Assembly (NCBI GenBank): GCA_043809315.1
Contig: JAZDDX010000035.1
Location: forward strand, 31,921-95,920
DNA: 64,000 nt
Direction of reading: 5' to 3'
DNA from: Pseudomonadota bacterium
GTDB taxonomy: Bacteria > Bdellovibrionota_G > JALEGL01 > DATDPG01
The notes beneath the pieces are model-generated. The model had not been told where the DNA came from and did not search any database. It saw only the letters and a program-made list of their open reading frames with translations. Every line of letters begins with the position of its first letter. Position 1 is the stretch's first letter. Of this stretch, positions 4,009 to 60,718 are shown in pieces. The translations under genes were made by a program, and so were the position numbers.

Positions 4009-6165
4009 CTAGACGGGAAGGGGGGGGCGGTCAACTCCGGAACGAAGCTCCTCTTCCGCCGCTTCGATCGTTCTCTTCTCCCGTTCCGCCGCGTCCGGCG
4101 CCTCGAGCGACGGCGTGAACGCCACGGCGCGGTTCCGGCCGGTCCGTTTCGCCCGATAGAGAGCCCGGTCGGCCCGTTCGATCAGCTCCTCCCGCTCCTT
4201 GGCGTCTTCCGGGAACGAGGCGGCTCCGACCGAGACGGTCACACGCAGCGTGAGCCCTTCGTGCTGGAAGCGGCTGCGGGCCACGGCCGCGACGATCCGC
4301 TCCGCCATCCGAAACGCCCCAATCGCCGAGGTGTTGACCAGAATCACGGCGAACTCCTCCCCTCCGTGCCGGCAGACGGCGTCGACTTTGCGCACCTCCC
4401 GGGAGAGAACCCCGGCGACCTCCTTCAGGACGAAATCGCCGACCGGATGCCCGTACTCGTCGTTGAACTTCTTGAAGTGATCGATGTCGATTAAAAGAAG
4501 GGAAGTCGCGCTCGGGTGTCGCCCCGACCGTTCGAGCTCGCGCCCCAACGTCTCCTGGAACGTCCGGTGGTTGAAGAGCCCTGTCAGCCCGTCGGTCGTC
4601 GCCAGCCTCTCGAGGGCCCCGACCATCCGGGCGTTCTTGATCGCGATTGCCGCCTGGGTCGTGACAACCTCGAGCATTTTTCTCTCGTTCCTCGAAAAGA
4701 AATGGTTCTTCTTGGAAGCGAAGAGGACCGCCCCGAGCGGCTCGCCGAGCACCTGCATCGGGATCAGGAAGACCGATTCGAACAGGTTCGGAAGGGGGCG
4801 CCGCCGGTTAAAGAGCGGGGTCTTTCCCTCCCGACTCCGGAAGTCGTTGTACGAGAGGGGGGCCTGGTTCCGGATCACCCAGGAGACGAGCCCCCGTTCT
4901 GGGGCACAGGCGAACGCCTCCCCCAACGACCCCTCCCTTTCCTCGCCGAGGGCAGCCGCCACACGATTCTGATCGCTCTTCGGGTCATGGAGAACGACAA
5001 GACCCAGGTCGTACGGGACGATCCGCCGCGCCGACTGGAGAAGCGTTTCCATCACATCCTCCATTCGCAGGCTCCGGTTGAGGGCGCTGCTGGCGGCGTA
5101 CAGGCTCGTCACCTCCTCTTTGAGATGGAAATAGGCGTGAAGCGTCTCGGAGGTGTCGATCCAGCGGGCCATCTGCGCGGCGATCCGTTCCGCCGTCCCG
5201 AGGTCGGCATCGGAGAATGGGACCGGATCGAGACGATCGAGGATCAGAATCCCTTTCAGGAGTTCGTCGGTTTTGACCGGGATCGCTGCAACCGACCGGA
5301 CCACCGGCGGCCCCTCGTAATAGAGAAGACCCCGCAACTCCCCGCTCGGAGAAGTCAACCGCACCGGCGTCAGCTCACGGAGAACCGCTTTGAAGATCCC
5401 CTGCGCCGGGTAGATCGAACGCCGCGCGAAACGATCGGAACCGGTCTGGTGTTCTTTCAGAAGAAACTTCTCTTCGACCGGATCGTAGAGGAACAGGGCC
5501 GCCGTGTGCCCCTGGAGCGTCCGGTGGACGATCTCGAGAAGGGCTCGGAACCCCCCTTCCCGCTCGGCGATCATGCTGGCCAGGTGTTCCGTCTTCTTGT
5601 CCTCGAACCGCGCCTGCTCCCGGAACTCCTCCGACCCGACGGCGATCATTCCCGCCTCCCGTTCGAACGAGCGGAGACGGTCGGTGATCCCCTCCCTCTT
5701 TTTCCGTTCCTGCGAGCGGAAGAGGACGGCGGTCGCGACGGAAAGGAGCAGCAGGAACGACTCCTGGCCGTTCCAAGCTGAGAAAAGGGAGCGGTAGAGG
5801 AAGTGAAAGAGAAGCAGGAGGGCGAGATGCCGGGCCCGGCAGTGCGCGTAAACGAGGACCAGAAGATACGGGAGGACGAGCCAGGAGAGCCAGGGGAGTC
5901 CGAACCGCAGGCTCCCCTCTCGCGACACGATCTCGACCGCCGCGAGAAGGGCGAACGCCCCCTCGAGCCGGCGCCGTTCTCCGAAGCGCCCTTGCGGGGA
6001 ACGAACTCCCCGGCGGAACGCCAGAAATCCGAGAAGGGAAAGTCCTGCGACGGCGACCGCCGCAAAGAGCGGCCGGTGCGGTGTGAGAAACCGGTCCGAA
6101 ACCAGTAGCAGACTCGCGGAAACCGCGTACGGAAGCCGGGCGACCCCTCTACGCCACGCCATCAC
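4009..6165 (-). CDS. Membrane-anchored GAF-GGDEF diguanylate cyclase
   Basis: N-terminal multi-TM region and a central GAF-like region. The C-terminal GGDEF domain has intact GGEEF and RxxD-type motifs (LFNHRTFQE...RHGGEEFAVIL...RALYRAKRTGRNR). Confidence 0.8.
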   Translation of the reverse strand: MMAWRRGVARLPYAVSASLLLVSDRFLTPHRPLFAAVAVAGLSLLGFLAFRRGVRSPQGRFGERRRLEGAFALLAAVEIVSREGSLRFGLPWLSWLVLPYLLVLVYAHCRARHLALLLLFHFLYRSLFSAWNGQESFLLLLSVATAVLFRSQERKKREGITDRLRSFEREAGMIAVGSEEFREQARFEDKKTEHLASMIAEREGGFRALLEIVHRTLQGHTAALFLYDPVEEKFLLKEHQTGSDRFARRSIYPAQGIFKAVLRELTPVRLTSPSGELRGLLYYEGPPVVRSVAAIPVKTDELLKGILILDRLDPVPFSDADLGTAERIAAQMARWIDTSETLHAYFHLKEEVTSLYAASSALNRSLRMEDVMETLLQSARRIVPYDLGLVVLHDPKSDQNRVAAALGEEREGSLGEAFACAPERGLVSWVIRNQAPLSYNDFRSREGKTPLFNRRRPLPNLFESVFLIPMQVLGEPLGAVLFASKKNHFFSRNERKMLEVVTTQAAIAIKNARMVGALERLATTDGLTGLFNHRTFQETLGRELERSGRHPSATSLLLIDIDHFKKFNDEYGHPVGDFVLKEVAGVLSREVRKVDAVCRHGGEEFAVILVNTSAIGAFRMAERIVAAVARSRFQHEGLTLRVTVSVGAASFPEDAKEREELIERADRALYRAKRTGRNRAVAFTPSLEAPDAAEREKRTIEAAEEELRSGVDRPPLPV

Positions 6166-6485
6166 TTGAAAATATATTGAATCTCGTTCTTCCCCACAAG
6201 GTGCAATTCCTCGCGGGCGTACCGTTCGATCGTGCGGGGATCACCCCGGAACTTCCGGACTTCCGAATCGAGACCGTTCACTTCGGCCGAGAGTTTCCCG
6301 ATCGCCCCGTCGAGCCGCTGACGCTCGCTCCATAGACGATAGCTGGTCAAGAGACCGCGATTGGTGAAGACGGAGGAGAAAGCGAGAAGCCCGAGATACG
6401 CCCAAAACCCCGTCCACCCGATTGAACGCCTGCGTCCGAGCCGGATCTGGATTCGGCGAATCGCCACTTTGAGGAAAACCGGCAC
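6162..6485 (-). CDS. ftsB: Septum formation initiator family protein (FtsB/DivIC-like)
   Basis: 107 aa: short cytoplasmic N-terminus, one TM helix, coiled coil and the C-terminal motif IERYAREELHLVGKNEIQYIF typical of PF04977. It overlaps the downstream GGDEF gene by 4 nt. Confidence 0.65.
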   Translation of the reverse strand: MPVFLKVAIRRIQIRLGRRRSIGWTGFWAYLGLLAFSSVFTNRGLLTSYRLWSERQRLDGAIGKLSAEVNGLDSEVRKFRGDPRTIERYAREELHLVGKNEIQYIFK

Positions 6486-48060: not shown

Positions 48061-49794
48061 TCACTCCAGGTAGATCCGCCGGGCATACGTGAGTTCCATC
48101 CCTTGGGCACCGCCGACGGTGATTGCGGCAAGGATCCTTTCGTTTTCATCGACAATCTTGGCCTGACGAAGACGGTATTTTTTCATGTACGCTTCCGTTT
48201 GCGTAAAGACCTGATCCCGGGCCTCCCCTTTGGTCTGCTCCCAGTGCAACGCTTTCGTGTGAATCACGAGGCCGTTCTCCTCTCGCTCGGCTGAATCGAG
48301 GGGAATGGAGAGACTTAGTTCGGTCCTCTCGACGCGCCGACCGGTGTAGTCGACAATCAGATAGATCCCGCCCCCCCCTAACGCCACGATCGCCGCGGCG
48401 ATCGCTTTTCCGATCCAGGCGCTCTTATTCTTCTTCCCTCGAACCTCGGGTTCCGGCTTCTTTTCCTCTTGTTTCCCGCTCCGACGGCCGTACTGGATCC
48501 CGGTGATCCCCCCCGGGCGGGGCTCCCGGAGAAGCGCGATGCGGGAACGGAGATCCTCGAGAATCCGCAACGCTTCGGTGCCGAGCCCCGTGTTTCCGAG
48601 ACCGGAGGCTTTTTCGGCCAGTTCGACTTCGGCGTTGTGAAGCCGGGTGGCGGTCTCGTTCAATCCCCGACGTTGGGTTTCGTCCCTGGCCGCCACCGCC
48701 TGTTTCACCTGCTTTTCGATTTCCTCTTCGATCTCCGCAGTCTGGGAAAGAAGAGGACCGACCTTCAAAAGGAATGGGTCCGCCATCACTCCCGGATCGG
48801 CGAGGATCCTCGGAGCGTAAGTCGCCAGGACTCCAAGCTTGATCCGAAGAGCGACGGTCCGACGGACGTGCTCCGTCCCGATCTCCTCGGAGCCGAGCGC
48901 CACGCGCTCGAATTCCGTCAGAGGTCCCAAAAACGAAAGGGGACTCTTCGGGTCCTTATCCAATGCGACGGCAATCAGATCGGCGACCTTGGAGGAGACG
49001 ATCCGATCGACCCACATGGGATCAAGGGATGCGGAACGCAAAGCGGTCTCAAAAAAACGCGCCATGGTGGCGACGATCCGCGTCAACTGGTCCTTCGTCA
49101 GCTCCGAAAACTTCACGCCGGTCGCGAACAAGAGACCGTGCCGGGGTTCGGTAAGTTCAACCACCTTCGCCACTGCACCTCGAATCGACGCCGGGGGGTC
49201 GCCGGGCCATCCAAATTTGAGACCGACCTTGGTCCCGGCCGAAACAACCGTGCCGAGCGCAATGAGAACCCCGCTCCGACTCAGATTGATCAGTTCCCCC
49301 TGTTTGGTCTGCCCGTCGACGATGACCTCCACCGGGCCATAAGCGGCCACCTTGGCCGGAATGTCGCTGACCGAAAGCGGGGGAGCTTCGGTCAAGGCCA
49401 GTGATTCACTGGCAGGTTCCCCAGCCGAAGGTGCGAATGGCGCGAGAAACTCCTGGATCTTCCCTAACGCCTCTTCCTGGGCCAGATACAGGTCGCAGCC
49501 GGCACCCTCGGCTCGCTCCTTCACGGTAGGGGTCTGGACGTCGGAAACCAAGATTACTTTGGTGCCTGCGAACGACTTCCTCTCTTTGATCTGCCGGCAG
49601 GTCTCGATCCCGCTCAACTGCGGCATCGCGACATCGAGCAGGACGACCGACGGCTGGAGTTCCCACACTTTGGAAAGGGCCTCTTTTCCTCCAGAAACCG
49701 GGACCGGAGTTAAGCCTAACGCTGTCAACAACGCGGGGAGTTCCGGGTAACGACCCAGAAGCTCCTGAAAAATGATGATGCGGTTCGAATTCAT
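48061..49794 (-). CDS. Receiver-like domain + PilZ domain protein with C-terminal TM anchor
   Basis: N-terminal CheY-like fold with degenerate acidic-pocket residues. Central PilZ-like region (QGELINLSRSGVLIALG...GLKFGW). C-terminal hydrophobic helix (AWIGKAIAAAIVALGGGGIYLIV). Confidence 0.6.
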   Translation of the reverse strand: MNSNRIIIFQELLGRYPELPALLTALGLTPVPVSGGKEALSKVWELQPSVVLLDVAMPQLSGIETCRQIKERKSFAGTKVILVSDVQTPTVKERAEGAGCDLYLAQEEALGKIQEFLAPFAPSAGEPASESLALTEAPPLSVSDIPAKVAAYGPVEVIVDGQTKQGELINLSRSGVLIALGTVVSAGTKVGLKFGWPGDPPASIRGAVAKVVELTEPRHGLLFATGVKFSELTKDQLTRIVATMARFFETALRSASLDPMWVDRIVSSKVADLIAVALDKDPKSPLSFLGPLTEFERVALGSEEIGTEHVRRTVALRIKLGVLATYAPRILADPGVMADPFLLKVGPLLSQTAEIEEEIEKQVKQAVAARDETQRRGLNETATRLHNAEVELAEKASGLGNTGLGTEALRILEDLRSRIALLREPRPGGITGIQYGRRSGKQEEKKPEPEVRGKKNKSAWIGKAIAAAIVALGGGGIYLIVDYTGRRVERTELSLSIPLDSAEREENGLVIHTKALHWEQTKGEARDQVFTQTEAYMKKYRLRQAKIVDENERILAAITVGGAQGMELTYARRIYLE

Positions 49795-51477: not shown

Positions 51478-52129
51478 CAGACTGCTCACGGTCGGCTTCT
51501 TGCTGTTCGGAATCGCCGGCTGTTTCGGAAAGAGCACCAACGAGTATATCCCCCCCCCAGACAGCGAACGTACCGCCCGCTCCCTGTCCGACATCTTCAA
51601 GGCGGAGCGGCCGCAGGCGTTCTATGCGGAGGCGTATGGCGCCTTCCGTTTCTCGTCCCAGAGCCTCCTGACCATTTCAAAAGACGGAGAGAACCGGACA
51701 TTCCAGGGAAGCGCGGCGGTCGAGATGGACGAGAAGGGGAACTACCACCTGGCCCGGATCCCGATGACCGGGGAAGCGACCGTCGAGGTGATCCGCCTGG
51801 ATCAGAAAGCGTACCTCAAGGCGGGGGGTTCCTCCGGTTTTCGCGTTCTGCGGCCTGCGCCCGAGTTCGACCGGTGGATCACCGTCTCCCTCCGGGAGGC
51901 GTTCTCCCTCTTCGACCAGGTGAACTTCGGGCGAAGTGCCGCCTCCTCGACGAAAGGTTCGCTCAGTTGCTGGACTCAGGAGGAGGACTCCCTTTGCGTC
52001 GATCCGAAGACAGGACTTCCGATGGAGGGGTCGATCAAGACCACCCAACCGAGCGGTGCAATCCTCTCGTTCCGGTTCAATTTCGCCCCCGCGAAACCGG
52101 GATCGATCCAGCTCGGACCCCCGTCATAA
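51455..52129 (+). CDS. Hypothetical lipoprotein
   Basis: Signal peptide with lipobox (LLFGIAGC). No known domain. Overlaps the obg 3-prime end by 23 nt. Confidence 0.5.
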   Translation: MRWPKNCSRLLTVGFLLFGIAGCFGKSTNEYIPPPDSERTARSLSDIFKAERPQAFYAEAYGAFRFSSQSLLTISKDGENRTFQGSAAVEMDEKGNYHLARIPMTGEATVEVIRLDQKAYLKAGGSSGFRVLRPAPEFDRWITVSLREAFSLFDQVNFGRSAASSTKGSLSCWTQEEDSLCVDPKTGLPMEGSIKTTQPSGAILSFRFNFAPAKPGSIQLGPPS

Positions 52130-52140
52130 GTCGTTCTCCA

Positions 52141-52170
52141 TTGGATCTCGGTTTTCCCGTTTGGTATAAT
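52141..52170 (+). promoter_or_regulatory. Sigma-70-like promoter (TTGGAT-N18-TATAAT) for rsfS-rlmH
   Basis: ttggat at 52141-52146, tataat at 52165-52170, 18-nt spacer. Followed by the aggagg RBS at 52184-52189. Confidence 0.4.
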
Positions 52171-52196
52171 GGAGCCATCCAACAGGAGGTGACCCC

Positions 52197-52577
52197 ATAG
52201 AACCCCGCGCCAAGGCGCTGTCCGTCGCAGAGACGGCGTCGGATCACAAAGCCATCGATCTGCGAATCCTCGAAGTTTTCCGCCACTGCGATTACGCCGA
52301 TTATTTCGTCATCATGAGCGCTTCCTCGACCCGCCACGCGAAAGCGTTGGCGGATTCGATTCTGGAAACATCGGGGAGTTCGAAGGTCCCGGAAGGGTAC
52401 CAGTTCGGAGAGTGGGTGCTCATCGATCTCGGGGATGTCGTCGTGCACATCTTCAACGAACCGCAACGGTATTACTACAACTTCGACCGCCTTTGGGGGC
52501 ATGTGCCAATTCTCGAAACGGCGGACGCTCCCCGCCGTCCGGCGGAAGACGAACGCCGCGCCGGGCACCCGATGTGA
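52197..52577 (+). CDS. rsfS: Ribosomal silencing factor RsfS (Iojap family); annotated start codon is ATA (probable ATG with G->A error)
   Basis: RsfS core (DYFVIMSASSTRHAKALAD...WVLIDLGDVVVHIF). The conserved N-terminal region (EPRAKALSVAETASDHKAIDLRIL) is in frame upstream of the first ATG (52314). The codon at the ideal distance (7 nt) from AGGAGG is ATA. Confidence 0.65.
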   Translation: MEPRAKALSVAETASDHKAIDLRILEVFRHCDYADYFVIMSASSTRHAKALADSILETSGSSKVPEGYQFGEWVLIDLGDVVVHIFNEPQRYYYNFDRLWGHVPILETADAPRRPAEDERRAGHPM

Positions 52578-53017
52578 AAATCGACATCCTTTGCGCCGGA
52601 CACAACCCCGAGCCGCACGAGGCCCGGTGGATCGCGGAGTATTGCGCGCGCGCCAAGAAATACGCACCGGTCTCGCTGACGCGCATCCGGGAACGTGATC
52701 CGAATCGGACGTGGATCGAGATCGAAAAGAAGATCCCGAAAGCCGCTTTTCGAATCGTCCTCGACGATCGCGGCGAATCTTTGTCGACGGAAGAATTCGC
52801 CCGTCTCCTGGATCGACCCGCGCGAAAAGGGAAAAAATCGCTCGCGTTCGTGATCGGTGGATCGTACGGTCTGCCGGATGGCGCCCGAGAGAGCGCGGAT
52901 GCCCGCGTCTCCCTCTCACCGTTGACCCTCCCTTACCGTCTCGCGCTTCTCGTTCTCTGCGAGCAGATATATCGTGTACTTTCCTGGCGCGCGGGAGCTC
53001 CGTACCACCATGAATGA
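52574..53017 (+). CDS. rlmH: 23S rRNA (pseudouridine1915-N3)-methyltransferase RlmH (SPOUT)
   Basis: 147 aa from GTG (VKIDILCAG...). GTGA overlap with the rsfS stop. SPOUT C-terminal motifs (FVIGGSYGL, LPYRLALLVLCEQIYR). Confidence 0.8.
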   Translation: MKIDILCAGHNPEPHEARWIAEYCARAKKYAPVSLTRIRERDPNRTWIEIEKKIPKAAFRIVLDDRGESLSTEEFARLLDRPARKGKKSLAFVIGGSYGLPDGARESADARVSLSPLTLPYRLALLVLCEQIYRVLSWRAGAPYHHE

Positions 53018-53972
53018 AAGGAAACGGATCGTTTTTCAGATTCACGGAGTTCGGATCGGGATCCGTTCCGATTCCGCGGACGCGACCGACCTCATGTGCG
53101 AGCGTCTCGCGGATTATCGTGCCGATGGGATCGAGCGATGCGAAGCGGAGATCGAGATCCAAACCAAGTCGGCACCGTTTTCTCCCGCTGGAATCCGGAA
53201 AGAATTCTCCTGGATCCGCTCCCGCCCTCTCTACGGCGATTTCGACAACGACATCCTCCGCTTGACCGACGGTCGTTCGATCTCCGTCACGCGATACGAG
53301 GAGCGGCGCGCCGAGATCTTCCTCGATCCAGAGACGCTGACCGATCCCCTCTTCACGTCCCGGACCTTCCTTCCGATGGCGCTCCTTGAACTCCTCCGCA
53401 CGTTCGGCTTTTTCTGCATCCACGGAGCACTCTGTGTCCGCGAGAAGCGAGGGATCTTGATTCTCGGGCACGGCGGAAGCGGGAAGTCGACGATCTCCGC
53501 CGCCCTGCTCCGGGAAGGGTTCAAGATCGTCGGCGACGACAACCTCCTCTTCCACTTGGGACCGGGAGGGGTGAGTCTCGGATTCCCGTTCGAGCGGGAG
53601 CTCTCTCTTTCGCCGGAGGCGCTGGCACAGTTCGACCCGCTGGCATCGATCCATCCTACGGCAAAGATCCGGATCCCGCTTCGCGTTCTCCCCTCGGACC
53701 GTGTCGCGACCAACGCGGTACCGAACGAGATCGTCTATCTGACCGGGGAGGACGAGGATGCCGGAGGACCGCTGGATCCGGCGGAGGCTTTCACGATCAT
53801 TCTGGAGGAGAACCCCCTGTTTCTCCTCTCCTCGCGCCTGGCTTCGAGTCATCTCCAGACGATCCGGACGCTGATCCGGAACGCTCGTTCCTGCAGCGTC
53901 TCTCTGAAGCATCGACACCCTCTCGACCTGGAGGAGATCGCCGCTCGCTTTCTCCGCCTCGCCAGCAGTTGA
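53010..53972 (+). CDS. HPr kinase/phosphorylase C-terminal-domain-like P-loop kinase (HprK-related kinase family)
   Basis: About 320 aa; Walker A GHGGSGKST in an HprK_C-like context (FFCIHGALCVREKRGILILGHGGSGKSTISAALLREGFKIVGDD). No HprK N-terminal domain. The ATG at 53010 overlaps the rlmH stop. Confidence 0.65.
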   Translation: MNERKRIVFQIHGVRIGIRSDSADATDLMCERLADYRADGIERCEAEIEIQTKSAPFSPAGIRKEFSWIRSRPLYGDFDNDILRLTDGRSISVTRYEERRAEIFLDPETLTDPLFTSRTFLPMALLELLRTFGFFCIHGALCVREKRGILILGHGGSGKSTISAALLREGFKIVGDDNLLFHLGPGGVSLGFPFERELSLSPEALAQFDPLASIHPTAKIRIPLRVLPSDRVATNAVPNEIVYLTGEDEDAGGPLDPAEAFTIILEENPLFLLSSRLASSHLQTIRTLIRNARSCSVSLKHRHPLDLEEIAARFLRLASS

Positions 53973-53974
53973 TC

Positions 53975-53990
53975 CGCCCTCGCGAGGGCG
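53975..53990 (+). other. Perfect 16-nt GC-rich palindrome (cgccctcg/cgagggcg) followed by tttaat, 3 nt after the kinase TGA
   Basis: Read directly from the sequence. Hairpin with a 6-7 bp GC stem. Possible weak intrinsic terminator, attenuator or recoding stimulator. Confidence 0.35.
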
Positions 53991-54005
53991 TTTAATCTCC
54001 CCCGC

Positions 54006-54185
54006 ATGACTTCGAAACTGGATGGTAAAGATCCCCGCGATCCAAAGGGAAAGAAAAAATACGTCAAGCCGGAGCTCAAGCGGATGAACGAGAAGGTCGT
54101 GAAAGCGGTCGGCTCCCCTGCGGTCCAAGGCCCCGCGGTTTCCGCACCGGCCTCACCCACCGCGCCGGGTACCAAAGTTTTTTGA
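54006..54185 (+). CDS. Unannotated 59-codon ORF: Lys-rich N-terminal half, Pro/Ala/Ser-rich C-terminal tail
   Basis: atg 54006 to tga 54185: MTSKLDGKDPRDPKGKKKYVKPELKRMNEKVVKAVGSPAVQGPAVSAPASPTAPGTKVF. Below the 60-aa ORF-track cut-off. In the same frame as the upstream kinase gene. GC3 about 65%. The stop is embedded in the inverted repeat gatgaa-N7-ttcatc (54183-54201). Confidence 0.35.
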   Translation: MTSKLDGKDPRDPKGKKKYVKPELKRMNEKVVKAVGSPAVQGPAVSAPASPTAPGTKVF

Positions 54186-54220
54186 TGAACGATTTCTTCA
54201 TCCAGGAAAAGTTAATCGGG

Positions 54221-55312
54221 TCACCAGAATAGCCATCGAAAGAGCACCGGAGCGTGCCGCCACAAAAGCCCGAACGGGCGGCGGAAACGCCACATCCGTT
54301 TCCTGACCCCAGCTGTCTGATACTCGATTTGCGCTTCTGACCCGTGAACAAGGCCCAAGAATCGCTTCATCCGACCCGGCTTCATCAACAGAAACGGCAA
54401 GGGGGATCCGGCAAAATCGATCGCGCGATCGGGCATCACCGCCAGATTCTTCCGGACCCGGCCGGTATAGAGCTGAAGTACGCGATTCTGGAGAATCGGC
54501 GGCTCCTGCACGACCTCGGGAAAGACCTCAGACGCGAGTTTCCAGGAGGGGTACGCAAGATACGTGAGGTCCGTTGCCGAAAGGCGCTCCCGGACATACT
54601 CCCACCGCGGTCGTTTCGCGCGGCACCAGACCGCGACGTCCGCCAGGTGCCGAAGGCCGTACAGAAAGTGGTGGCGCGTGGCATGAAAAAGGAGGTGCAC
54701 GAGAAACTCCTCGTCGCACCAGGGGTCCGGGAACGGATACGTACCGTACAGCGGAGGGAGCGTCGTTGCGTGGAGCTCGAGAAACAGGTCCCCTTGCTCG
54801 TACCCGATCGCGTCGATCCCCGCCACGACTGCCGCGATCGGATCCCCCGTGACCGCGACGGCGCGGGCCAGCGGGCCTCTCGGCTTGACCCGCTCGAACC
54901 CGCTCTTTTCGAGAAGCCCCGTCGCAGCCGAAACATCGGACGGGCGGACCAAGAGATCGAGATCCCGAAACGCCCGCTGGCCCGGTTTCGGGTACGCTCC
55001 ACGCGCGAGCATCACCCCTTTGAGCGTCGTGACCCAGATTCCGTGTTCACGGAAGTCGGCGCAGATCTCGTCACATCGCCGACCGTAGTGCTCCGCCCGC
55101 AATGCCGTGAGTTGCCAAAGATAACGGGCTTCATCGAGCAGCAAAGGCGCCGTTTGCGAGTTCAAGACTCCCGAGGAAAGGATCGTCGCGACCTTGTGAT
55201 CCCGGGCGAGCTTCCAAACCGACTCTTCGTGATCCTGGAGCGGCGCGACCCCGGAATCGAACCCCAGGCCGGTCCGTACAAGGGAGATGAGCCTCTTGAG
55301 ATCAGAGGACAT
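54221..55312 (-). CDS. Nucleotidyltransferase, PF14907 (NTP_transf_5, uncharacterised nucleotidyltransferase) family
   Basis: About 364 aa from MSSDLKRL...; hG[GS]...DhDhhV-type motif (RAFRDLDLLVRPSD) characteristic of this family. The upstream 130 codons of the 495-aa ORF overlap the neighbouring kinase gene and are not considered coding. Confidence 0.6.
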   Translation of the reverse strand: MSSDLKRLISLVRTGLGFDSGVAPLQDHEESVWKLARDHKVATILSSGVLNSQTAPLLLDEARYLWQLTALRAEHYGRRCDEICADFREHGIWVTTLKGVMLARGAYPKPGQRAFRDLDLLVRPSDVSAATGLLEKSGFERVKPRGPLARAVAVTGDPIAAVVAGIDAIGYEQGDLFLELHATTLPPLYGTYPFPDPWCDEEFLVHLLFHATRHHFLYGLRHLADVAVWCRAKRPRWEYVRERLSATDLTYLAYPSWKLASEVFPEVVQEPPILQNRVLQLYTGRVRKNLAVMPDRAIDFAGSPLPFLLMKPGRMKRFLGLVHGSEAQIEYQTAGVRKRMWRFRRPFGLLWRHAPVLFRWLFW

Positions 55313-55374
55313 GCCAAGCACTCTTGCCTGATTTGCCGAAAAAAGGGAACCGAAGCCGTTGATCCGTAAGCGAC

Positions 55375-58300
55375 TCAGCTTACGTCGATTCCGTGGAGGG
55401 AGACTTCCGGATTCGTGATCGGCTCCGGCGCCTCCTTTGGGATCCGGATCGTGAACGTCGCCCCCTTCCCCACGCCGTCCGACGCGACGGTTAGGGTTCC
55501 ACCATGCTGTCCTTCGACGATGGAGCGAACGATGTAGAGCCCCAATCCCGTTCCTTCCGTGGGAGATTTCGTTGTGAAGAACGGTCGGCAAAGATTCGGC
55601 AAGGTCTCCGGCTTGATCCCGGCCCCGTTGTCGCGGATCGACAGTTCGAACTCCGCTCCGAGATCGCGTCCTTTGACGATGATCTTTCCGGCCCCGTCGG
55701 AAGGACACGCTTCGATCGCGTTCCCGATCAAGTTGACCAGGATCTCGTGGAACGAGGCGTACCCGAGAAGTTTGACCCCCTCGGTTCCGAACAGTTCGAC
55801 GGCGACCCCCTTCAATTTGATCTTGTCGGCGTGGAGTGATTTGGCCAGTTCGATCGAGTCGGCGAGGTTGATCTCGGTTCTTTGTTTCGAACCGCTCGAA
55901 TAGGTGCGAACGGCGTCGACCAACGTCCGGATCCGTTCCATGGCACGGTCGATGACGGCGCTCGTCGCGTCCAACTTCTCCTGGAGCTTGGCGGCCTCCT
56001 CAGGGGACGCTTTCTGCATCCGGGCGATCAGGTCGGCGGCCATCGCCCGCTGAAATTTGACGTTGTTGACCAGTTGATTGATGCCGTTCCGGATCTGGTG
56101 GGCCATCCCGCCGGCCAGATACCCGAGCTCGATGACTTTTTCGTTGTTGGCGATCCACTCGGCGGTCTTGTGCGCCTCGATCTGGGCCCGTACCCGGGCC
56201 AATAAGATCTCGCGCCGGAACGGTTTGGTGACGTAGTCGTTCGCCCCTCCGCGCAGAAGCCGAGTGATCGTTTCTTCGTCGTCGTGGGAACTCAACATAA
56301 TGATCGGAAGCGCCTGAAGCTTGGGGGACTTCCTCGCCGCCTCGACCAGTTCGTCGCCGCGCATCTGCGGCATCATGATGTCGGTGACGAGGGCGTCGAA
56401 CGGCTCGCTCTTCAAGCGCTCCAGGGCCTTCTTCCCGTCCGGAGCGAAGTGGACGTTGTACTCGTCAGCCAGGGCGGTAAAGACGATCTGCGCGACCTCG
56501 GGGTTGTCCTCGGCAACGAGAAGAGTCGGTCTCCCTTCTTGGGTCTTCTCCGGGCGCTCTCTCGGGTAGGCGACGTCGAGCGTGCCGTGCAGGACGCTCT
56601 TTCGGGAAGGATCGTCGACGCTCGCCTCTGCGATGATTTCGACATCCTGGGAGAGGGGCAATGCAACGACAAACTTGGAGCCGCCGAATTCGGACTCCAC
56701 CACCGATACCTTTCCGTTGTGGAGTTCCGCCATCTCTTTGACGAACGAGAGGCCGATTCCGGAGCCGCCATGCTCCTTCAAAGAGGTCCGGCTGGACTGG
56801 TAGTACCGGTCGAAAATCTTGTCGCGTTCGGCGGGGGGAATGCCGATGCCGCTGTCGCTCACTTCGAAGTAGGCGCGCGCTGAATCGGTCCGCATCGAAA
56901 CCTTGATGATCGGGGTCGGGTGGTTTTTCCGATCGGCCGGTACGACCCGTCGGTCGGTGAATTTGATTGCGTTGGAGAGGAGGTTGTCGATGACCCGCTC
57001 GATCTTGGGCGGGTCCATGGGGATCTTTAAATTCTCGAAACCGTAGGTGTCGACTTGAAATTCGATCCCCTTTTGCGCGCAGAGCAGGCGGAACGGCTCG
57101 GCCCAGCCGGAGAGAAGTTCAGCGGGGTGGACGAGCTTCCAGTCGAGCTTGAGCGTACCCGACTCGGCCTTCAACGTGTCGAGCATCGTCGTGATCATGT
57201 CGAGCAATCGGCGTAATGACCGATCGACCGGTTTCAGCTTCTCGCCGACCAAATCCCGCATCTCGCTCGCCAGCTCCTCCACCGCCCCCAGCGCGATCGT
57301 GATCGGCGTCTTGAAATCGTGCGACACGTTCGCGAAGAAGCGCTCCTTCATCTTTTCCATTGCGCGTAATCGATCGAGCGCCATGCCGAGGTCTTTGGTG
57401 CGAGCATCGACTTGTTGCTCGACGTGGAGGAAGGCATCGCCATATTCTTTTGCGAGCGCTAATGCGGTGGCGGAAAGCATTACCGCAAAACCAAACGGGA
57501 GAAACCACGGGGGGCCGCTTGGCATAAAAGTCATCCCAACATCATGGACACTTGCCAGGAAAACCGCTGTAAACGCCAACATGTAGCGCCAAAGACCTGG
57601 CGACCGACTCCGGACCCAACCCCAAATCGCCTGTCCGTAAGCCAAGAAAAACGCGAGTAAAAAGACTGAATACCACAGCCGATAGGCTTCATAGACGCTC
57701 ATAAAACCGTTGCGGGACAGAACCACAGCGGCCGAAACGAGACTCAACCCAACAAAAGGATAAAAAAGTTTTTTTGAGATCGTTCGAGTGCGACTGAAGA
57801 AGAACCAAATAAATGTACAGGCGCTCGCAATCGCGCTGATGGCATTAAATTTCAGCACAGCCGGCAGGTCGGAGAACAAGCGATATGGGATCCCACTTAG
57901 AGAAAACTCCAGGCAACCCACGCTGAGAGAGCAGAGCGCAAAGATTCCGTTGTAGGAACGGGTGGGGACAAGAAGGTAGACAAAGAGGTAGTACAGCCCA
58001 ACAGCGATGAGCAGTAATCCGAACAAAGCGAGAAGATCCGTATCGATAAATCCGACGACGGATGCCCAAGGTTGAATTCGGCTTGCCTCGCCGATGCCAA
58101 TCGGACCGATATAGATCCCAGCCGTATCGGGGGTATCCCATTTGAATAGCTGAACCTCAATGTCAACGAATGGCTTTATGCCCTTTGGAAGACATTCCTT
58201 AGAGATTGGGTACGTTCGCAAAAGCCCCCACCACCAGCCCACTTGGGCGGAATCACCGCCCAATCCAGACCGTCCTACCTCGCAGCCATTTAGGCTTACA

Positions 58301-58666: not shown

Positions 58667-60718
58667 TTAACTTGTTTTGTTGCTCGTATGCTTTCTAGCA
58701 GCGTTCCGTCTGGCTACCAAATGCCCAAAGAGCATGTTTGCAAAGGCATGATACCGCCTTGCCGCCACGCATCTTGATATCCATCGCGCCGAGACAGAGA
58801 TGAAGCTGAGCCCCCAGTTAACGTATTCGTCCTTTTTGTCACCCTCGATGAGAACGAGGAACTTATCTTTACCGAGTGCGCGGTAATGGTTGACGCACCC
58901 ACGAAGGAGTTCGCGGGTTATCTCGCAGCTTTGACCGGCATACTTCGGCAAGATGTCCACATGCACGAGGTCAAAAAGCCCAAAGACATTAACTCCTGAA
59001 CTTTCGCTCTCCGCCCGACAGAAACCGGCAAACTCTCCATTCACGCGCGCAACCAGGAAGGTCCTATTTCTCTCCAAACCGAACGGACGCATCTCCGCAT
59101 TCAGATCCGATAAATCCAGAACACTTTCCGCCACGAGGGAGAATGCACCACGCTCGAGCGGCGATCGACAAAGTTCACAAAACCGGACAACTCTCTGCAG
59201 ATCCCACCGGGTTGCCTCCGTGACAACGATCGTCTCATTCGTCTCGGTGAAATTCGTGTCCGTGGTCGAAGCTTCAAAAAACTGGAATAGCTTTAGCTCT
59301 TGATGATTCGGAAATCGATAGGTTTTTACAAAGTCAAAGTAGTTCCTCTGATTCCACGATTTTTCCGAATCGGTGATGCTTAAAAAATATTCCGCGCCCT
59401 CCCCGGAGAGCACATCTGTCGTCATCGAGTACAACTCTCGACCGACCAGTTTTGAAACCTTCGGATCGATTGCAAGGTGATGCACACACCAGGTTTTCGG
59501 GTAAACACGATCCATCTGTAAGTGGCCGACGATCGTCCCGTCATGACAAATCAACGCTCTTTTCGAGAGCTTGGTTCCCGCCTGCTTGAGCGCCTCCCAG
59601 GTCCCCTTGGTCACGTCAATTAGGTGCGTAAAGCTTCCCCGGTTCTTAAGGTCTAAGTAGCCGCTCCGATCGAACAGATCCCAAATCTGCTTGTGATCTG
59701 CCTCTTGATAGGTAAACGACAACGTCGGATACCGCGCTTCAAGAATCGTATTGTGCCAATTCGTTCGATCATCGTCAGTCGCGGTCTCGAACCCGATCCC
59801 GATCGCGTACTGATTCTCCTCCGGAATCCACCGATAGCCGCGGACCATCCCCTTCCCTTCGATCTTCACCCCCGTCGACGTCGCGATCCGGACCTTCTCA
59901 AACTTGAACCCAACGGGCGCCGCAATCTCCCCCGACGGATCGATCACCGAGATCCCATGCTCGCTGAAATCGTAAACCTTGAGATCTTTCGAATGGACCC
60001 CGAGAAGCTCGCTCTCCACCTCGATCGTGAGCGTCCGGTCGTTCGCCCCGTTCAGAACCCGAACCGTCTCCCGCCGTAACAGCCGCGCCACCTTCTTCGG
60101 CAGTTCGATCTTAATCCGATCCCCCTCTACCGAAACGATCTTCCCCTCGAGCGCATGACACGTCTGAAAAATCTCGAACCGGAACGACGCGACCCCAGTT
60201 TCCAGCCGCCCCCGCTTCGCCTCGTGAACCTCCGCCTCCATCTGATTCGGCGCCTCGAACTTCTTCGGAATCAGCGTTACTTCCCCGCGGAGTTGCCTCG
60301 CCTCCACCAAACATTCCGGCCCTTTCGTCGCCAAATCTCCGAACAGCGTCGTCAACGTCTCTGCATCCTCGATCAGATCCCACCCCGGATCTTCCGTCGT
60401 AAACGACACGGGTCGCTCCGAAGCATCGGTCGTCAACAACACCCCCACCGACCCCTCGAACTGTCCCGGCTTTAGATGTCTCACTCTCCCGTGATACGTC
60501 TCGTCCCGCACGTGGAACTCTACGGGCGTATCGACTCCCTTCGCCCACTTGAACGCGTCGCTCGCCACGCGAAGACCGACGCCGCGCAGAGAATAATCCT
60601 TGAGTTGCGCCGGAAACGGATGCCCGCCGACACTCAAGGTCGCTCGAACCTCCGACCGGGGGATCGCACGAGAGAACTTCCGCTGACTTTCAGGAACCAG
60701 TTTCATGCCGTTCTTCAT
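58667..60718 (-). CDS. Large cytoplasmic protein with multiple PilZ-like domains (putative c-di-GMP effector) and a C-terminal alpha/beta domain
   Basis: Repeated PilZ-like beta-barrel segments (RSEVRATLSVGGHPFPAQLKDYSLRGVGL..., RLLRRETVRVL..., KVYDFSEHGISVI...). About 55-58% GC. Immediately downstream of the hybrid kinase. Confidence 0.5.
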   Translation of the reverse strand: MKNGMKLVPESQRKFSRAIPRSEVRATLSVGGHPFPAQLKDYSLRGVGLRVASDAFKWAKGVDTPVEFHVRDETYHGRVRHLKPGQFEGSVGVLLTTDASERPVSFTTEDPGWDLIEDAETLTTLFGDLATKGPECLVEARQLRGEVTLIPKKFEAPNQMEAEVHEAKRGRLETGVASFRFEIFQTCHALEGKIVSVEGDRIKIELPKKVARLLRRETVRVLNGANDRTLTIEVESELLGVHSKDLKVYDFSEHGISVIDPSGEIAAPVGFKFEKVRIATSTGVKIEGKGMVRGYRWIPEENQYAIGIGFETATDDDRTNWHNTILEARYPTLSFTYQEADHKQIWDLFDRSGYLDLKNRGSFTHLIDVTKGTWEALKQAGTKLSKRALICHDGTIVGHLQMDRVYPKTWCVHHLAIDPKVSKLVGRELYSMTTDVLSGEGAEYFLSITDSEKSWNQRNYFDFVKTYRFPNHQELKLFQFFEASTTDTNFTETNETIVVTEATRWDLQRVVRFCELCRSPLERGAFSLVAESVLDLSDLNAEMRPFGLERNRTFLVARVNGEFAGFCRAESESSGVNVFGLFDLVHVDILPKYAGQSCEITRELLRGCVNHYRALGKDKFLVLIEGDKKDEYVNWGLSFISVSARWISRCVAARRYHAFANMLFGHLVARRNAARKHTSNKTS

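Follow-up and report, generated by a model that had tools for sequence, protein, structure and literature searches.

A kinase–peptide–nucleotidyltransferase locus as a probable deletion derivative of a radical-SAM RiPP-type cluster

In lasso peptide biosynthesis, an HprK homologue phosphorylates the precursor and PsmN adds a hexose to the phosphate; PsmN was placed in a family of uncharacterised nucleotidyltransferases (PMC8498205; PMC6993621). ScmC-type HprK-like proteins and PF14907 nucleotidyltransferases (NTases) are widespread, with substrates that have so far been undefined. Literature searches on PF14907/NTP_transf_5, SynChlorMet and HprK-related proteins yielded only a phosphonate survey, in which a PF14907 gene adjoins a thymidylate kinase gene.

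Here, we analysed a 64-kb stretch of a MAG contig (the window), where an HprK-like gene, a small ORF and a PF14907 gene lie together. The preliminary description had seen them as a minimal kinase, nucleotidyltransferase and small-protein unit. This view was not supported, given the radical-SAM gene present in 11/11 related loci, the PqqD gene present in 9/9, and an 18-nt scar in the window. With a probability of roughly three in four, the locus arose by deletion from a conserved radical-SAM RiPP-type cluster, which occupies one fixed chromosomal position in a lineage known by name only from Bdellovibrionota MAGs.

Genes of the window locus

The following features were located in the window:

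53010-53972, plus strand: kinase-like ORF, 320 aa; HprK/PEPCK-fold P-loop protein, ScmC-type
53969-53998, plus strand: promoter-like element of the peptide gene, from the comparative layout
53969-53974, plus strand: -35 element TTGATC of this promoter-like element
53975-53990, plus strand: hairpin in the 18-nt spacer between -35 and -10, CGCCCTCGCGAGGGCG
53993-53998, plus strand: -10 element TAATCT, 7 nt before the peptide ATG
54006-54185, plus strand: small ORF, precursor-peptide gene, 59 aa (NCBI V1495_09925)
54185-54232, plus strand: residual 15-codon ORF, MNDFFIQEKLIGSPE followed by a stop
54221-55312, minus strand: NTase of PF14907 (NTP_transf_5), 363 aa, in convergent orientation with the peptide gene

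All three genes were found between rlmH and a sensor kinase, as previously described. A Pfam scan identified the flanks as rlmH (SPOUT_MTase, E 1.8e-35), whose stop is overlapped by 8 nt by the start of the kinase-like gene, and a hybrid sensor kinase of 1090 aa. Although the small ORF had been called unannotated, NCBI annotates it in the source MAG as V1495_09925. The reported lack of lasso genes at the locus held for the neighbouring ORFs, each of which was inspected and assigned. An Rfam scan of 52000-56000 gave no match.

The kinase-like protein carries an intact Walker A motif (GHGGSGKST) and an intact downstream GDDN, which align to GDSGIGKS and ADDN of the HprK/P structure 1ko7 in the PDB. 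Its AF2 model (pLDDT 89) had HprK/P and PEPCK as top Foldseek matches (E ~1e-8). The active-site motifs and the fold thus upheld the assignment as HprK-like. Pfam Hpr_kinase_C (PF07475) matched at E 1.9e-5 and 24.7 bits, below its 33.3-bit cut-off, and TIGR00679 gave 22.1 bits, not reaching its cut-off of 240. The best NCBIfam matches were TIGR04352 and TIGR04355 (HprK_rel_A and HprK_rel_B; 32.5 and 27.9 bits, cut-offs 200). The NCBIfam ScmC model (TIGR04249, cut-off 125) scored 15.6 bits for the window kinase and 25.7 for its L001 orthologue, and PF27840 ('ScmC') is the precomputed Pfam family of the identical database protein, also assigned to P0001-P0006 and the orthologues. Kinase orthologues in syntenic loci showed 26-54% identity, and a profile search collected 823 representatives at E <= 1e-10. 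The context, namely the precursor peptide together with radical-SAM and PqqD genes in the relatives, argues for a peptide rather than HPr Ser46 as the kinase substrate. The search for related loci was seeded with a four-sequence kinase alignment; L005 (Paenibacillus) and L011-L014 were discarded, as they matched at the P-loop level only.

The NTase is a solid member of PF14907 (E 1.7e-33; 116.7 bits, cut-off 31.2), with an alignment that spans positions 6-248 of the 249-position profile. It is full length, with conserved KG...RDLDLLV...LELH, and its C-terminus lies within 1-2 residues of the protein ends in L006 and L016. Identity to the NTases of L001, L002, L006, L016, L017 and L018 was 31-54%. 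RDLDLLV is kept in all orthologues save those of L006 (DVDLLL), L017 (DIDLLI) and L018 (DLDFLI), and DxD is retained in these too. In L017 the gene is flipped, yet still beside the cluster. A sequence comparison of the NTase with the PDB gave no match, and its single-sequence AF2 model was unusable (pLDDT 46).

Since the kinase–peptide–NTase association recurs in ~10 independent metagenomic or MAG loci, the arrangement is more than chance and the three genes belong together. Their earlier interpretation as one peptide-modification (RiPP-type) locus was borne out. The proposed association of HprK-like, PF14907 and PqqD proteins was also encountered in an unrelated marine metagenome locus (L009).

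Precursor peptide and intact cluster in related loci

The small ORF encodes the 59-aa peptide MTSKLDGKDPRDPKGKKKYVKPELKRMNEKVVKAVGSPAVQGPAVSAPASPTAPGTKVF, which had no Pfam or NCBIfam match. Orthologues occupy the same position in L001, L002, L003 and L006 (47-59% identity), and a peptide profile search extended the family to 24 peptides of 49-70 aa. Conservation beside the kinase/NTase pair, named as a check in the preliminary description, was hereby confirmed; the small ORF is a genuine gene and a conserved one. The 24 peptides have the leader motif KPxLxRMN in common and terminate in SPxAPGxxVF, with Val-Phe as the last two residues in 24/24. Throughout the core, only one hydroxyl residue is conserved, namely the SP-motif Ser (Ser50 in the window). 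With this conserved leader and core, the peptides fit a RiPP precursor. Two core changes that appeared specific to the window among five peptides (VPG>VQG and AQA>APA) lost their weight among the 24, where the Q position is also T or H and one peptide has VAG.

The promoter-like element has the layout TTGAnn, 16-18 nt, TAnnnT, 6-10 nt and start codon, which was present in 11/11 loci with otherwise divergent sequences; its frequency at random window positions was 0.0009. A generic sigma-70 promoter scan did not call the peptide promoter, which only the comparative layout revealed; the spacer hairpin was reported as terminator-like. The mRNA starting from this predicted promoter would be leaderless or nearly so. 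A candidate RNA hairpin that spans the peptide stop and the radical-SAM start (GAUGAA/UUCAUC; 94% paired, one compensatory pair) was rejected as not significant, 64/500 shuffles being as good.

In the relatives, the gene order starts with rplU-rpmA-obg-x-rsfS-rlmH-(SDR)-rhodanese, followed by the kinase-like ScmC-type protein and the ~59-aa precursor. The radical-SAM/SPASM-type maturase and the PqqD chaperone come next, and then, in the opposite orientation, the PF14907 NTase, an S26-type peptidase and the hybrid sensor kinase. The radical-SAM gene follows the peptide gene in 11/11 distinct loci readable downstream (L001, L002, L003, L006, L016, L017, L018, JGI 3300071358, L019/L020, L021 and L022/L023), directly so in ten. 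Peptide stop and radical-SAM start overlap or abut in most loci (TGATG, TAATG, TAGATG), with a gap of ~8 nt in L017 and 66 nt in L016. The PqqD gene is next in 9/9 loci reaching far enough (Pfam PqqD, E 5.7e-20), and the S26-type peptidase and rhodanese genes are usual. A precursor beside radical-SAM and PqqD genes, the arrangement of RRE-dependent RiPPs, was thus found in 11/11 and 9/9 relatives, respectively, and not in the window. The radical-SAM protein is the best-conserved component (66-72% identity), with CX3CX2C and six more invariant Cys. Some plasticity was seen: the kinase gene lies 5-10 kb from the peptide gene in L004/L016 and L021, and in L017 the S26 gene lies distally. The cluster is without an exporter gene and shows vertical inheritance at a housekeeping locus associated with the ribosome. 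Literature searches on HPr kinase with radical SAM and RiPP, and on Bdellovibrionota RiPPs, found no description of it; the cluster is undescribed.

Deletion scar and missing genes

Synteny on both sides, with rplU...rlmH upstream and the hybrid HK downstream at 46-60% identity, places the window at the same chromosomal site as the relatives' cluster. Searching the 64-kb window by tblastn with the relatives' proteins revealed no homologue of the radical-SAM, PqqD, S26 peptidase or rhodanese genes, in agreement with the absence of PqqD noted before. Directly after the peptide stop, codons 1-6 of the radical-SAM gene (ATGAACGATTTCTTCATC; 54185-54202) remain. In DNA alignments, this scar was identical to L001 and L003 at 17/18 nt and to L002 at 15/18; including the 2 nt before the ATG, the identity to L001 was 19/20. 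The TGATG stop/start overlap is preserved, and homology to the radical-SAM gene breaks off 19 nt short of the stop codon of the NTase. The radical-SAM start retained at this position marks an in-situ deletion of ~1.25 kb, which took out the radical-SAM gene from codon 7 onwards together with all of PqqD. Given the 11/11 and 9/9 occurrence in the relatives as well as the scar, maturase and PqqD were lost secondarily here, and their absence is not a trait of the system itself. Positions 54203-54232, the tail of the residual ORF, may be a remainder of the PqqD 3' end: the QEKLIGSPE of this tail resembles PqqD residues ~80-87 (EKLVES, RERLIQS) in 4/8 relatives, at chance-level scores. For rhodanese and S26 scars, local DNA alignment and translation of the 55313-55374 spacer gave chance-level matches only.

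The deletion rests on the single known assembly of the MAG contig, and metagenome assemblers can skip or collapse segments. Nevertheless, an assembly or binning artefact that hides a complete cluster of the real genome is highly improbable: the junction sequence is clean and contiguous, and rhodanese, radical-SAM plus PqqD, and S26 are missing at three separate junctions with tidy gene boundaries, a pattern not expected from one assembly error. We likewise see very little chance that the radical-SAM, PqqD and peptidase genes moved elsewhere in the genome and complete the pathway in trans. The somewhat plastic architecture of the relatives (the kinase in L004/L016 and L021, S26 in L017) speaks for such a move, but the 64-kb window is free of any homologue, the in-situ scar points to loss instead of a clean move, and the radical-SAM gene follows the peptide gene in every other locus, tightly coupled save in L016.

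The genes that survived the deletion show no decay, and a count of substitutions aimed at relaxed selection did not support a pseudogene-like state. At columns invariant in all other loci, window-specific changes were found at 2/37 positions in the kinase and 4/55 in the NTase, both within the range of intact clusters, and at 1/30 in the rlmH control; there was no excess. Since the retained genes are free of decay and the promoter is intact, the remnant may still be under selection and functional in a reduced way. The trio could also be a functional streamlined module, in line with the preliminary description, in which kinase and NTase alone modify the 59-aa peptide by phosphorylation and subsequent nucleotidylation or glycosylation, the radical-SAM step and leader removal being dispensed with. 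The three ORFs are full length and intact with their catalytic motifs, substitutions at otherwise invariant positions are not in surplus, the conserved peptide promoter is still there, and exactly these three genes were spared by three separate gene losses. A recent deletion, however, would equally leave intact ORFs. Such a composition occurs in only 1/12 loci, namely the window, the radical-SAM enzyme that was lost is more conserved than any other cluster component, and the scar shows that the state is derived. We therefore consider the streamlined module unlikely and retain the deletion derivative.

As a natural deletion variant, the window reveals the components whose loss leaves the genes for kinase, NTase and peptide undamaged. 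It is also a warning for annotation, as a module that looks 'minimal' in a single genome may be left over from a more extensive cluster.

Proposed pathway and comparison with known systems

In the intact cluster, the precursor would be transcribed from its own promoter. The PqqD protein would bind the KPxLxRMN leader and present the radical-SAM enzyme with the Pro/Ala-rich core (...SPxAPGxxVF-COOH). The HprK-like P-loop enzyme would then phosphorylate the peptide, with Ser50 of the SP motif as the candidate residue. The PF14907 enzyme could decorate the phosphate, for which PsmK/PsmN provide a precedent, or else nucleotidylate or glycosylate the peptide, and the S26-type peptidase would finally remove the leader. 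We infer the kinase target, the NTase substrate and the radical-SAM reaction from homology and context. With the rhodanese, S26, radical-SAM and PqqD genes absent, the window locus cannot yield the normal end product; at most, the remnant would deliver an unprocessed linear peptide, possibly phosphorylated or nucleotidylated.

The lack of an exporter, the vertical inheritance at a housekeeping locus and the adjoining conserved hybrid sensor kinase make an intracellular cofactor or signal conceivable as the product. We tentatively raise the possibility, itself rather doubtful, that the intact family is a new RiPP class, combining radical-SAM/SPASM and PqqD processing, phosphorylation by an HprK/PEPCK-fold enzyme and PF14907-dependent nucleotidylation or glycosylation on the phosphate, with such a cofactor or signal and not an antibiotic as its product. 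If so, the family would provide the first defined peptide substrate for PF14907 and ScmC-type proteins, and the window would represent a naturally occurring knockout of this core reaction, separating the tailoring enzymes from the maturase. The cluster family already offers an identifiable precursor for HprK-like/PF14907 systems, with conserved leader, core and promoter, and its fixed gene set (radical-SAM, PqqD, kinase, NTase, S26 peptidase) makes the chemistry testable by heterologous expression.

The lasso systems (paeninodin with PadeK; pseudomycoidin with PsmK/PsmN) are similar in that an HprK-homologous kinase tailors a RiPP precursor. In pseudomycoidin, an enzyme of an uncharacterised-nucleotidyltransferase family decorates the phosphate, PsmN being likened here by the family description of the paper. 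Lasso pathways also include a PqqD-type chaperone (PMC8498205; PMC6993621), and the relatives' PqqD scored best against lasso PqqD chaperone models, below the cut-offs. In contrast, no lasso cyclase (Asn-synthetase-like C), B1 or B2 gene was called at the window locus or in the relatives' loci, and radical-SAM chemistry takes the place of the core enzyme in the relatives. Val-Phe forms the end of the peptide, unlike the C-terminal Ser phosphorylated by lasso kinases; this difference counts against the pathway proposed here.

The HprK-related kinase A/B systems (TIGR04352/TIGR04355, PqqD_rel_X) supply the best NCBIfam matches of the kinase, and L009 holds a distant trio of PqqD-like, HprK-like and PF14907 genes that is devoid of radical-SAM. 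The radical-SAM maturase is, however, the conserved core of the window's cluster family, and the relatives' PqqD reached 19.2 bits against TIGR04353 (cut-off 35) of the A system.

Mycofactocin and PQQ share with the relatives a small precursor with functional residues at its extreme C-terminus. The MftA precursor ends in Val-Tyr; the window peptide ends in Val-Phe, with Phe in place of Tyr. A PqqD-type chaperone, a SPASM-type radical-SAM enzyme, a peptidase and then a sugar- or nucleotide-type transferase are further common elements, as is an exporter-free cluster inherited vertically at a housekeeping locus. MftC (TIGR03962) was the second-best NCBIfam match of the relatives' radical-SAM protein, but at 81.2 bits (cut-off 265), and PqqE gave 52 (cut-off 381); homologues of MftD/E/F or PqqB/C are lacking. 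We regard this resemblance as a possible lead only.

In SynChlorMet (SCM), an HprK-like ScmC-type protein likewise occurs with a PqqD homologue (ScmD) and a PqqE-like radical-SAM enzyme, and ScmF and ScmE were among the top four NCBIfam matches of the relatives' radical-SAM protein. The scores were far below the cut-offs (ScmF 78.7 vs 400, ScmE 75.6 vs 400, ScmD 24.1 vs 100). SCM has two radical-SAM/SPASM proteins (ScmE and ScmF), as opposed to one in the relatives and none in the window, and the relatives' cluster goes beyond the SCM components in having genes for a PF14907 NTase and an S26 peptidase, as well as a precursor that is clearly recognisable.

Genes of the window locus

The preliminary description had proposed a kinase, a small ORF and a PF14907 (NTP_transf_5) nucleotidyltransferase (NTase) lying side by side, and all three ORFs were found between rlmH (SPOUT_MTase, E 1.8e-35) and the gene of a hybrid sensor histidine kinase of 1090 aa:

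53010-53972, + strand: kinase-like ORF, 320 aa; Walker A GHGGSGKST, GDDN further downstream
54006-54185, + strand: small ORF, 59 aa, MTSKLDGKDPRDPKGKKKYVKPELKRMNEKVVKAVGSPAVQGPAVSAPASPTAPGTKVF
54221-55312, - strand: NTase ORF, 363 aa; motif RDLDLLV

The kinase-like protein scored 24.7 bits against Pfam Hpr_kinase_C, under the threshold of 33.3. Its matches to NCBIfam HprK_rel_A, HprK_rel_B, hpr-ser and ScmC were all far under the cut-offs, and the precomputed database Pfam family for the protein and its orthologues was PF27840 ('ScmC'). The best PDB match by phmmer was S. xylosus HprK/P (1ko7), and the alignment brought both P-loop and catalytic DD motif into register. A 7-sequence alignment gave a confident AlphaFold2 model (pLDDT 89, pTM 0.87), and Foldseek returned HprK/P structures and PEP carboxykinases as its top matches (E about 1e-8). 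In the model, the protein has the HprK/PEPCK P-loop phosphotransferase fold. Its close relatives are few; an exhaustive profile search yielded 21 representatives at E <= 1e-30, forming a narrow orthologous group, 823 at E <= 1e-10 and 11,985 at E <= 1e-3. Fifty-three more distant relatives matched HprK_rel_A, HprK_rel_B, hpr-ser and ScmC (best E-values 1e-9 to 1e-20), none of the 53 with an equivalog-level score, which places the kinase-like protein in a broad, mostly unnamed HprK-like superfamily. The NTase belongs firmly to PF14907 (116.7 bits vs the Pfam cut-off of 31.2).

The small ORF, annotated by NCBI as V1495_09925 in the source MAG, had no family match. Its conservation beside the kinase and NTase genes, the check set in the preliminary description, was borne out: every contig of the close kinase relatives carried an ORF of 56-59 aa directly downstream of the kinase gene. 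Five such peptides aligned over their full length, with an invariant leader motif Y-x-K-P-x-L-x-x-M-N and an invariant C-terminus A-S-P-x-A-P-G-x-x-V-F. The profile built from this alignment retrieved 24 peptides of 49-70 aa, and those with a source name came from Bdellovibrionota or Bdellovibrionales MAGs. The Val-Phe end was present in 24/24, as was a Ser-Pro dipeptide, whose Ser is the sole hydroxyl residue conserved throughout the core. By these alignments, the small ORF encodes a conserved peptide of precursor type.

The source MAG bears the NCBI label 'Pseudomonadota bacterium', yet the locus is syntenic over >10 kb with contigs of MAGs labelled Bdellovibrionota/Bdellovibrionales, with 46-60% identity between the hybrid sensor kinases; NCBI's label could be out of date or inexact. 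PilZ-domain proteins are encoded on either side of the block from rplU to the sensor kinase (48061-49794 and 58667-60718, both - strand). They are a response regulator-PilZ protein and a PilZ-GNAT protein; both genes are also kept in the relatives' loci, hinting at c-di-GMP signalling around the site.

The intact cluster and the deletion in the window

Gene contexts were taken from related metagenome and MAG loci (L001, L002, L003, L006, L016 with L004, L017, L018, JGI 3300071358, L019/L020, L021 and L022/L023; L019 is from GCA_020434375.1). The consensus order was rplU-rpmA-obg-x-rsfS-rlmH-(SDR)-rhodanese-kinase-peptide, followed by radical SAM-PqqD and by the oppositely oriented NTP_transf_5, S26-type peptidase and hybrid sensor kinase genes. 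The relatives' cluster and the window locus occupy one chromosomal site, matching on both sides. A radical-SAM gene of ~340 aa followed the peptide gene in all 11 distinct loci readable downstream, and PqqD came next in all nine that extended far enough. In most, the peptide gene's stop codon overlapped or abutted the start of the radical-SAM gene (TGATG, TAATG, TAGATG), with gaps of about 8 nt in L017 and 66 nt in L016.

The radical-SAM protein was the best-conserved component, with 66-72% identity where the kinases share just 26-62%. It contains CX3CX2C and six more invariant Cys, a pattern that fits a SPASM/twitch-type auxiliary domain. Its top NCBIfam matches were the tungsten-cofactor maturase, MftC, ScmF and ScmE, all far under cut-off, and its best PDB sequence matches were SkfB and PqqE. 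The relatives' PqqD protein matched Pfam PqqD (E 5.7e-20) and scored highest with lasso PqqD chaperone models, under their cut-offs. The small gene upstream of the NTase encodes a peptidase of the S24/S26 type; the L001 copy (61.8 bits) exceeded the archaeal-type signal peptidase I cut-off of 51.85.

The remaining genes showed several departures from this arrangement. L021 (7537-7944) lacked the PF14907 gene, and its S26 peptidase lay directly after PqqD. In L017 (7056-7955 and 9473-10513), the NTase shared the strand of the other cluster genes and the kinase P-loop was degenerate (AKANMGKST in place of GxGGSGKST). The S26 gene of L017 was distal. Variation thus affects the tailoring genes more than the radical-SAM/PqqD core. 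Big_5 surface-protein genes split the kinase from the peptide gene in L004/L016 (OY764265.1, a Bdellovibrionota MAG) and L021 (GCA_035292885.1); these inserted genes are very large, 5-10 kb. In L016, a hexapeptide-repeat transferase additionally separates PqqD from the NTase, and a methyltransferase lies past the NTase. The S26 peptidase and hybrid sensor kinase genes of L001 are split by an insertion (5410-6425) that is missing from the other loci; it consists of an AbiEii-family nucleotidyltransferase toxin gene and, upstream, a small gene.

No rhodanese, radical-SAM, PqqD or S26 homologue was found in the whole 64-kb window. Straight after the peptide stop, the window retains TGATGAACGATTTCTTCATC, which corresponds to the conserved stop/start overlap and radical-SAM codons 1-6 (MNDFFI). 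These 18 nt are identical to L001 and L003 at 17 positions, and homology stops there. At its 3' end, the convergent, full-length NTase gene overlaps a residual 15-codon ORF (54185-54232), as it overlaps PqqD in the relatives; the ORF's tail QEKLIGSPE shows a weak, non-significant likeness to the PqqD C-terminus. The simplest reading of this junction, in a contig known from just one assembly, is an in-situ deletion of ~1.25 kb that fused codon 6 of the radical-SAM gene with the extreme end of PqqD. Rhodanese and S26 are missing at two other junctions, where no recognisable scar was found.

The window locus therefore cannot carry out core maturation or leader removal. The preliminary description had read the three genes as a minimal kinase, nucleotidyltransferase and small-protein unit. 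Its peptide-modification module and conserved small ORF stood, but the minimal unit was wrong, as the relatives carry radical-SAM (11/11) and PqqD (9/9) genes and the window keeps the radical-SAM scar.

Where all other loci are invariant in the alignment, the window deviated at 2/37 positions in the kinase, 4/55 in the NTase and 1/30 in the control rlmH. These rates lie within the range of loci with complete clusters, and the kinase and NTase catalytic motifs are intact. The retained genes may be a recent wreck or a reduced module that still works.

Putative promoter and RNA features of the peptide gene

A layout of TTGAnn, 16-18 nt, TAnnnT and 6-10 nt to the start codon preceded the peptide gene in 11/11 loci (the window, L001, L002, L003, L006, L016-L019, L021 and L022), the remaining sequence being divergent. 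The same layout occurred at only 0.0009 of random window positions. The window element, in 53969-54008, is:

53969-53974 (TTGATC) and 53993-53998 (TAATCT, 7 nt before ATG), + strand: promoter-like element

Its -35 hexamer contains the kinase stop codon, and a GC hairpin occupies the spacer. This conserved sigma-70-like layout ends only 6-10 nt before the start, which points to a promoter of the peptide gene's own and to a precursor mRNA that is leaderless or almost so. The remnant in the window is probably still transcribed.

At 54184-54202, a 6-bp RNA hairpin (GAUGAA...UUCAUC) could form across the peptide stop and the start of the radical-SAM gene, and it recurs at the corresponding junction in L001, L002, L003, L006, L018 and L022. 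A single compensatory pair, G-C to A-U, connects the stop codon (TGA or TAA) to the Ile codon (ATC or ATT). The hairpin was not significant, 64 of 500 shuffles being as good.

Proposed pathway and comparison with known systems

The results above show the make-up of the cluster, the conservation of the precursor, the window's deletion, the kinase fold and motifs, and the NTase family; the enzymology that follows is inferred. In the intact system, the leader would be bound by PqqD and the core handed to the radical-SAM enzyme. The HprK-like enzyme would phosphorylate the peptide, Ser50 in the invariant SP motif being the obvious candidate. The PF14907 enzyme would alter the phosphate or the peptide, and the S26-type peptidase would cut off the leader. 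For the radical-SAM reaction, a C-terminal or carbon-carbon modification is plausible speculation, given the invariant Val-Phe end, the lack of a core Cys and the MftC/PqqE-like affinities.

Lasso peptides offer the precedent: the C-terminal Ser of their precursor is phosphorylated by an HprK homologue, and that phosphate then receives a hexose from PsmN, which belongs to a family of uncharacterised nucleotidyltransferases (PMC8498205; PMC6993621). In a marine metagenome locus (L009 488-3875; also L010), PqqD-like, HprK-like kinase and PF14907 NTase genes stand in a row that has no radical-SAM gene; L009 is a distant, independent kinase, NTase and chaperone system. A comparable locus, L008, has a glycosyltransferase. 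In a phosphonate gene neighbourhood, a PF14907 gene adjoins a thymidylate kinase (PMC8942020). Both pairings, in L009 and with the thymidylate kinase, would fit PF14907 enzymes whose substrates are phosphorylated.

The locus is not a member of HprK/P proper, the SynChlorMet (SCM) cassette, the HprK_rel_A system, lasso clusters or mycofactocin; for each of these, we tested a defining feature that it lacked. We found no paper that describes the cluster. The locus mixes elements of HprK/P, SCM, HprK_rel_A, lasso and mycofactocin systems. We rate the family as a radical-SAM/RRE RiPP cluster with an HprK-like kinase and PF14907 tailoring, of which the window copy is a degraded example.
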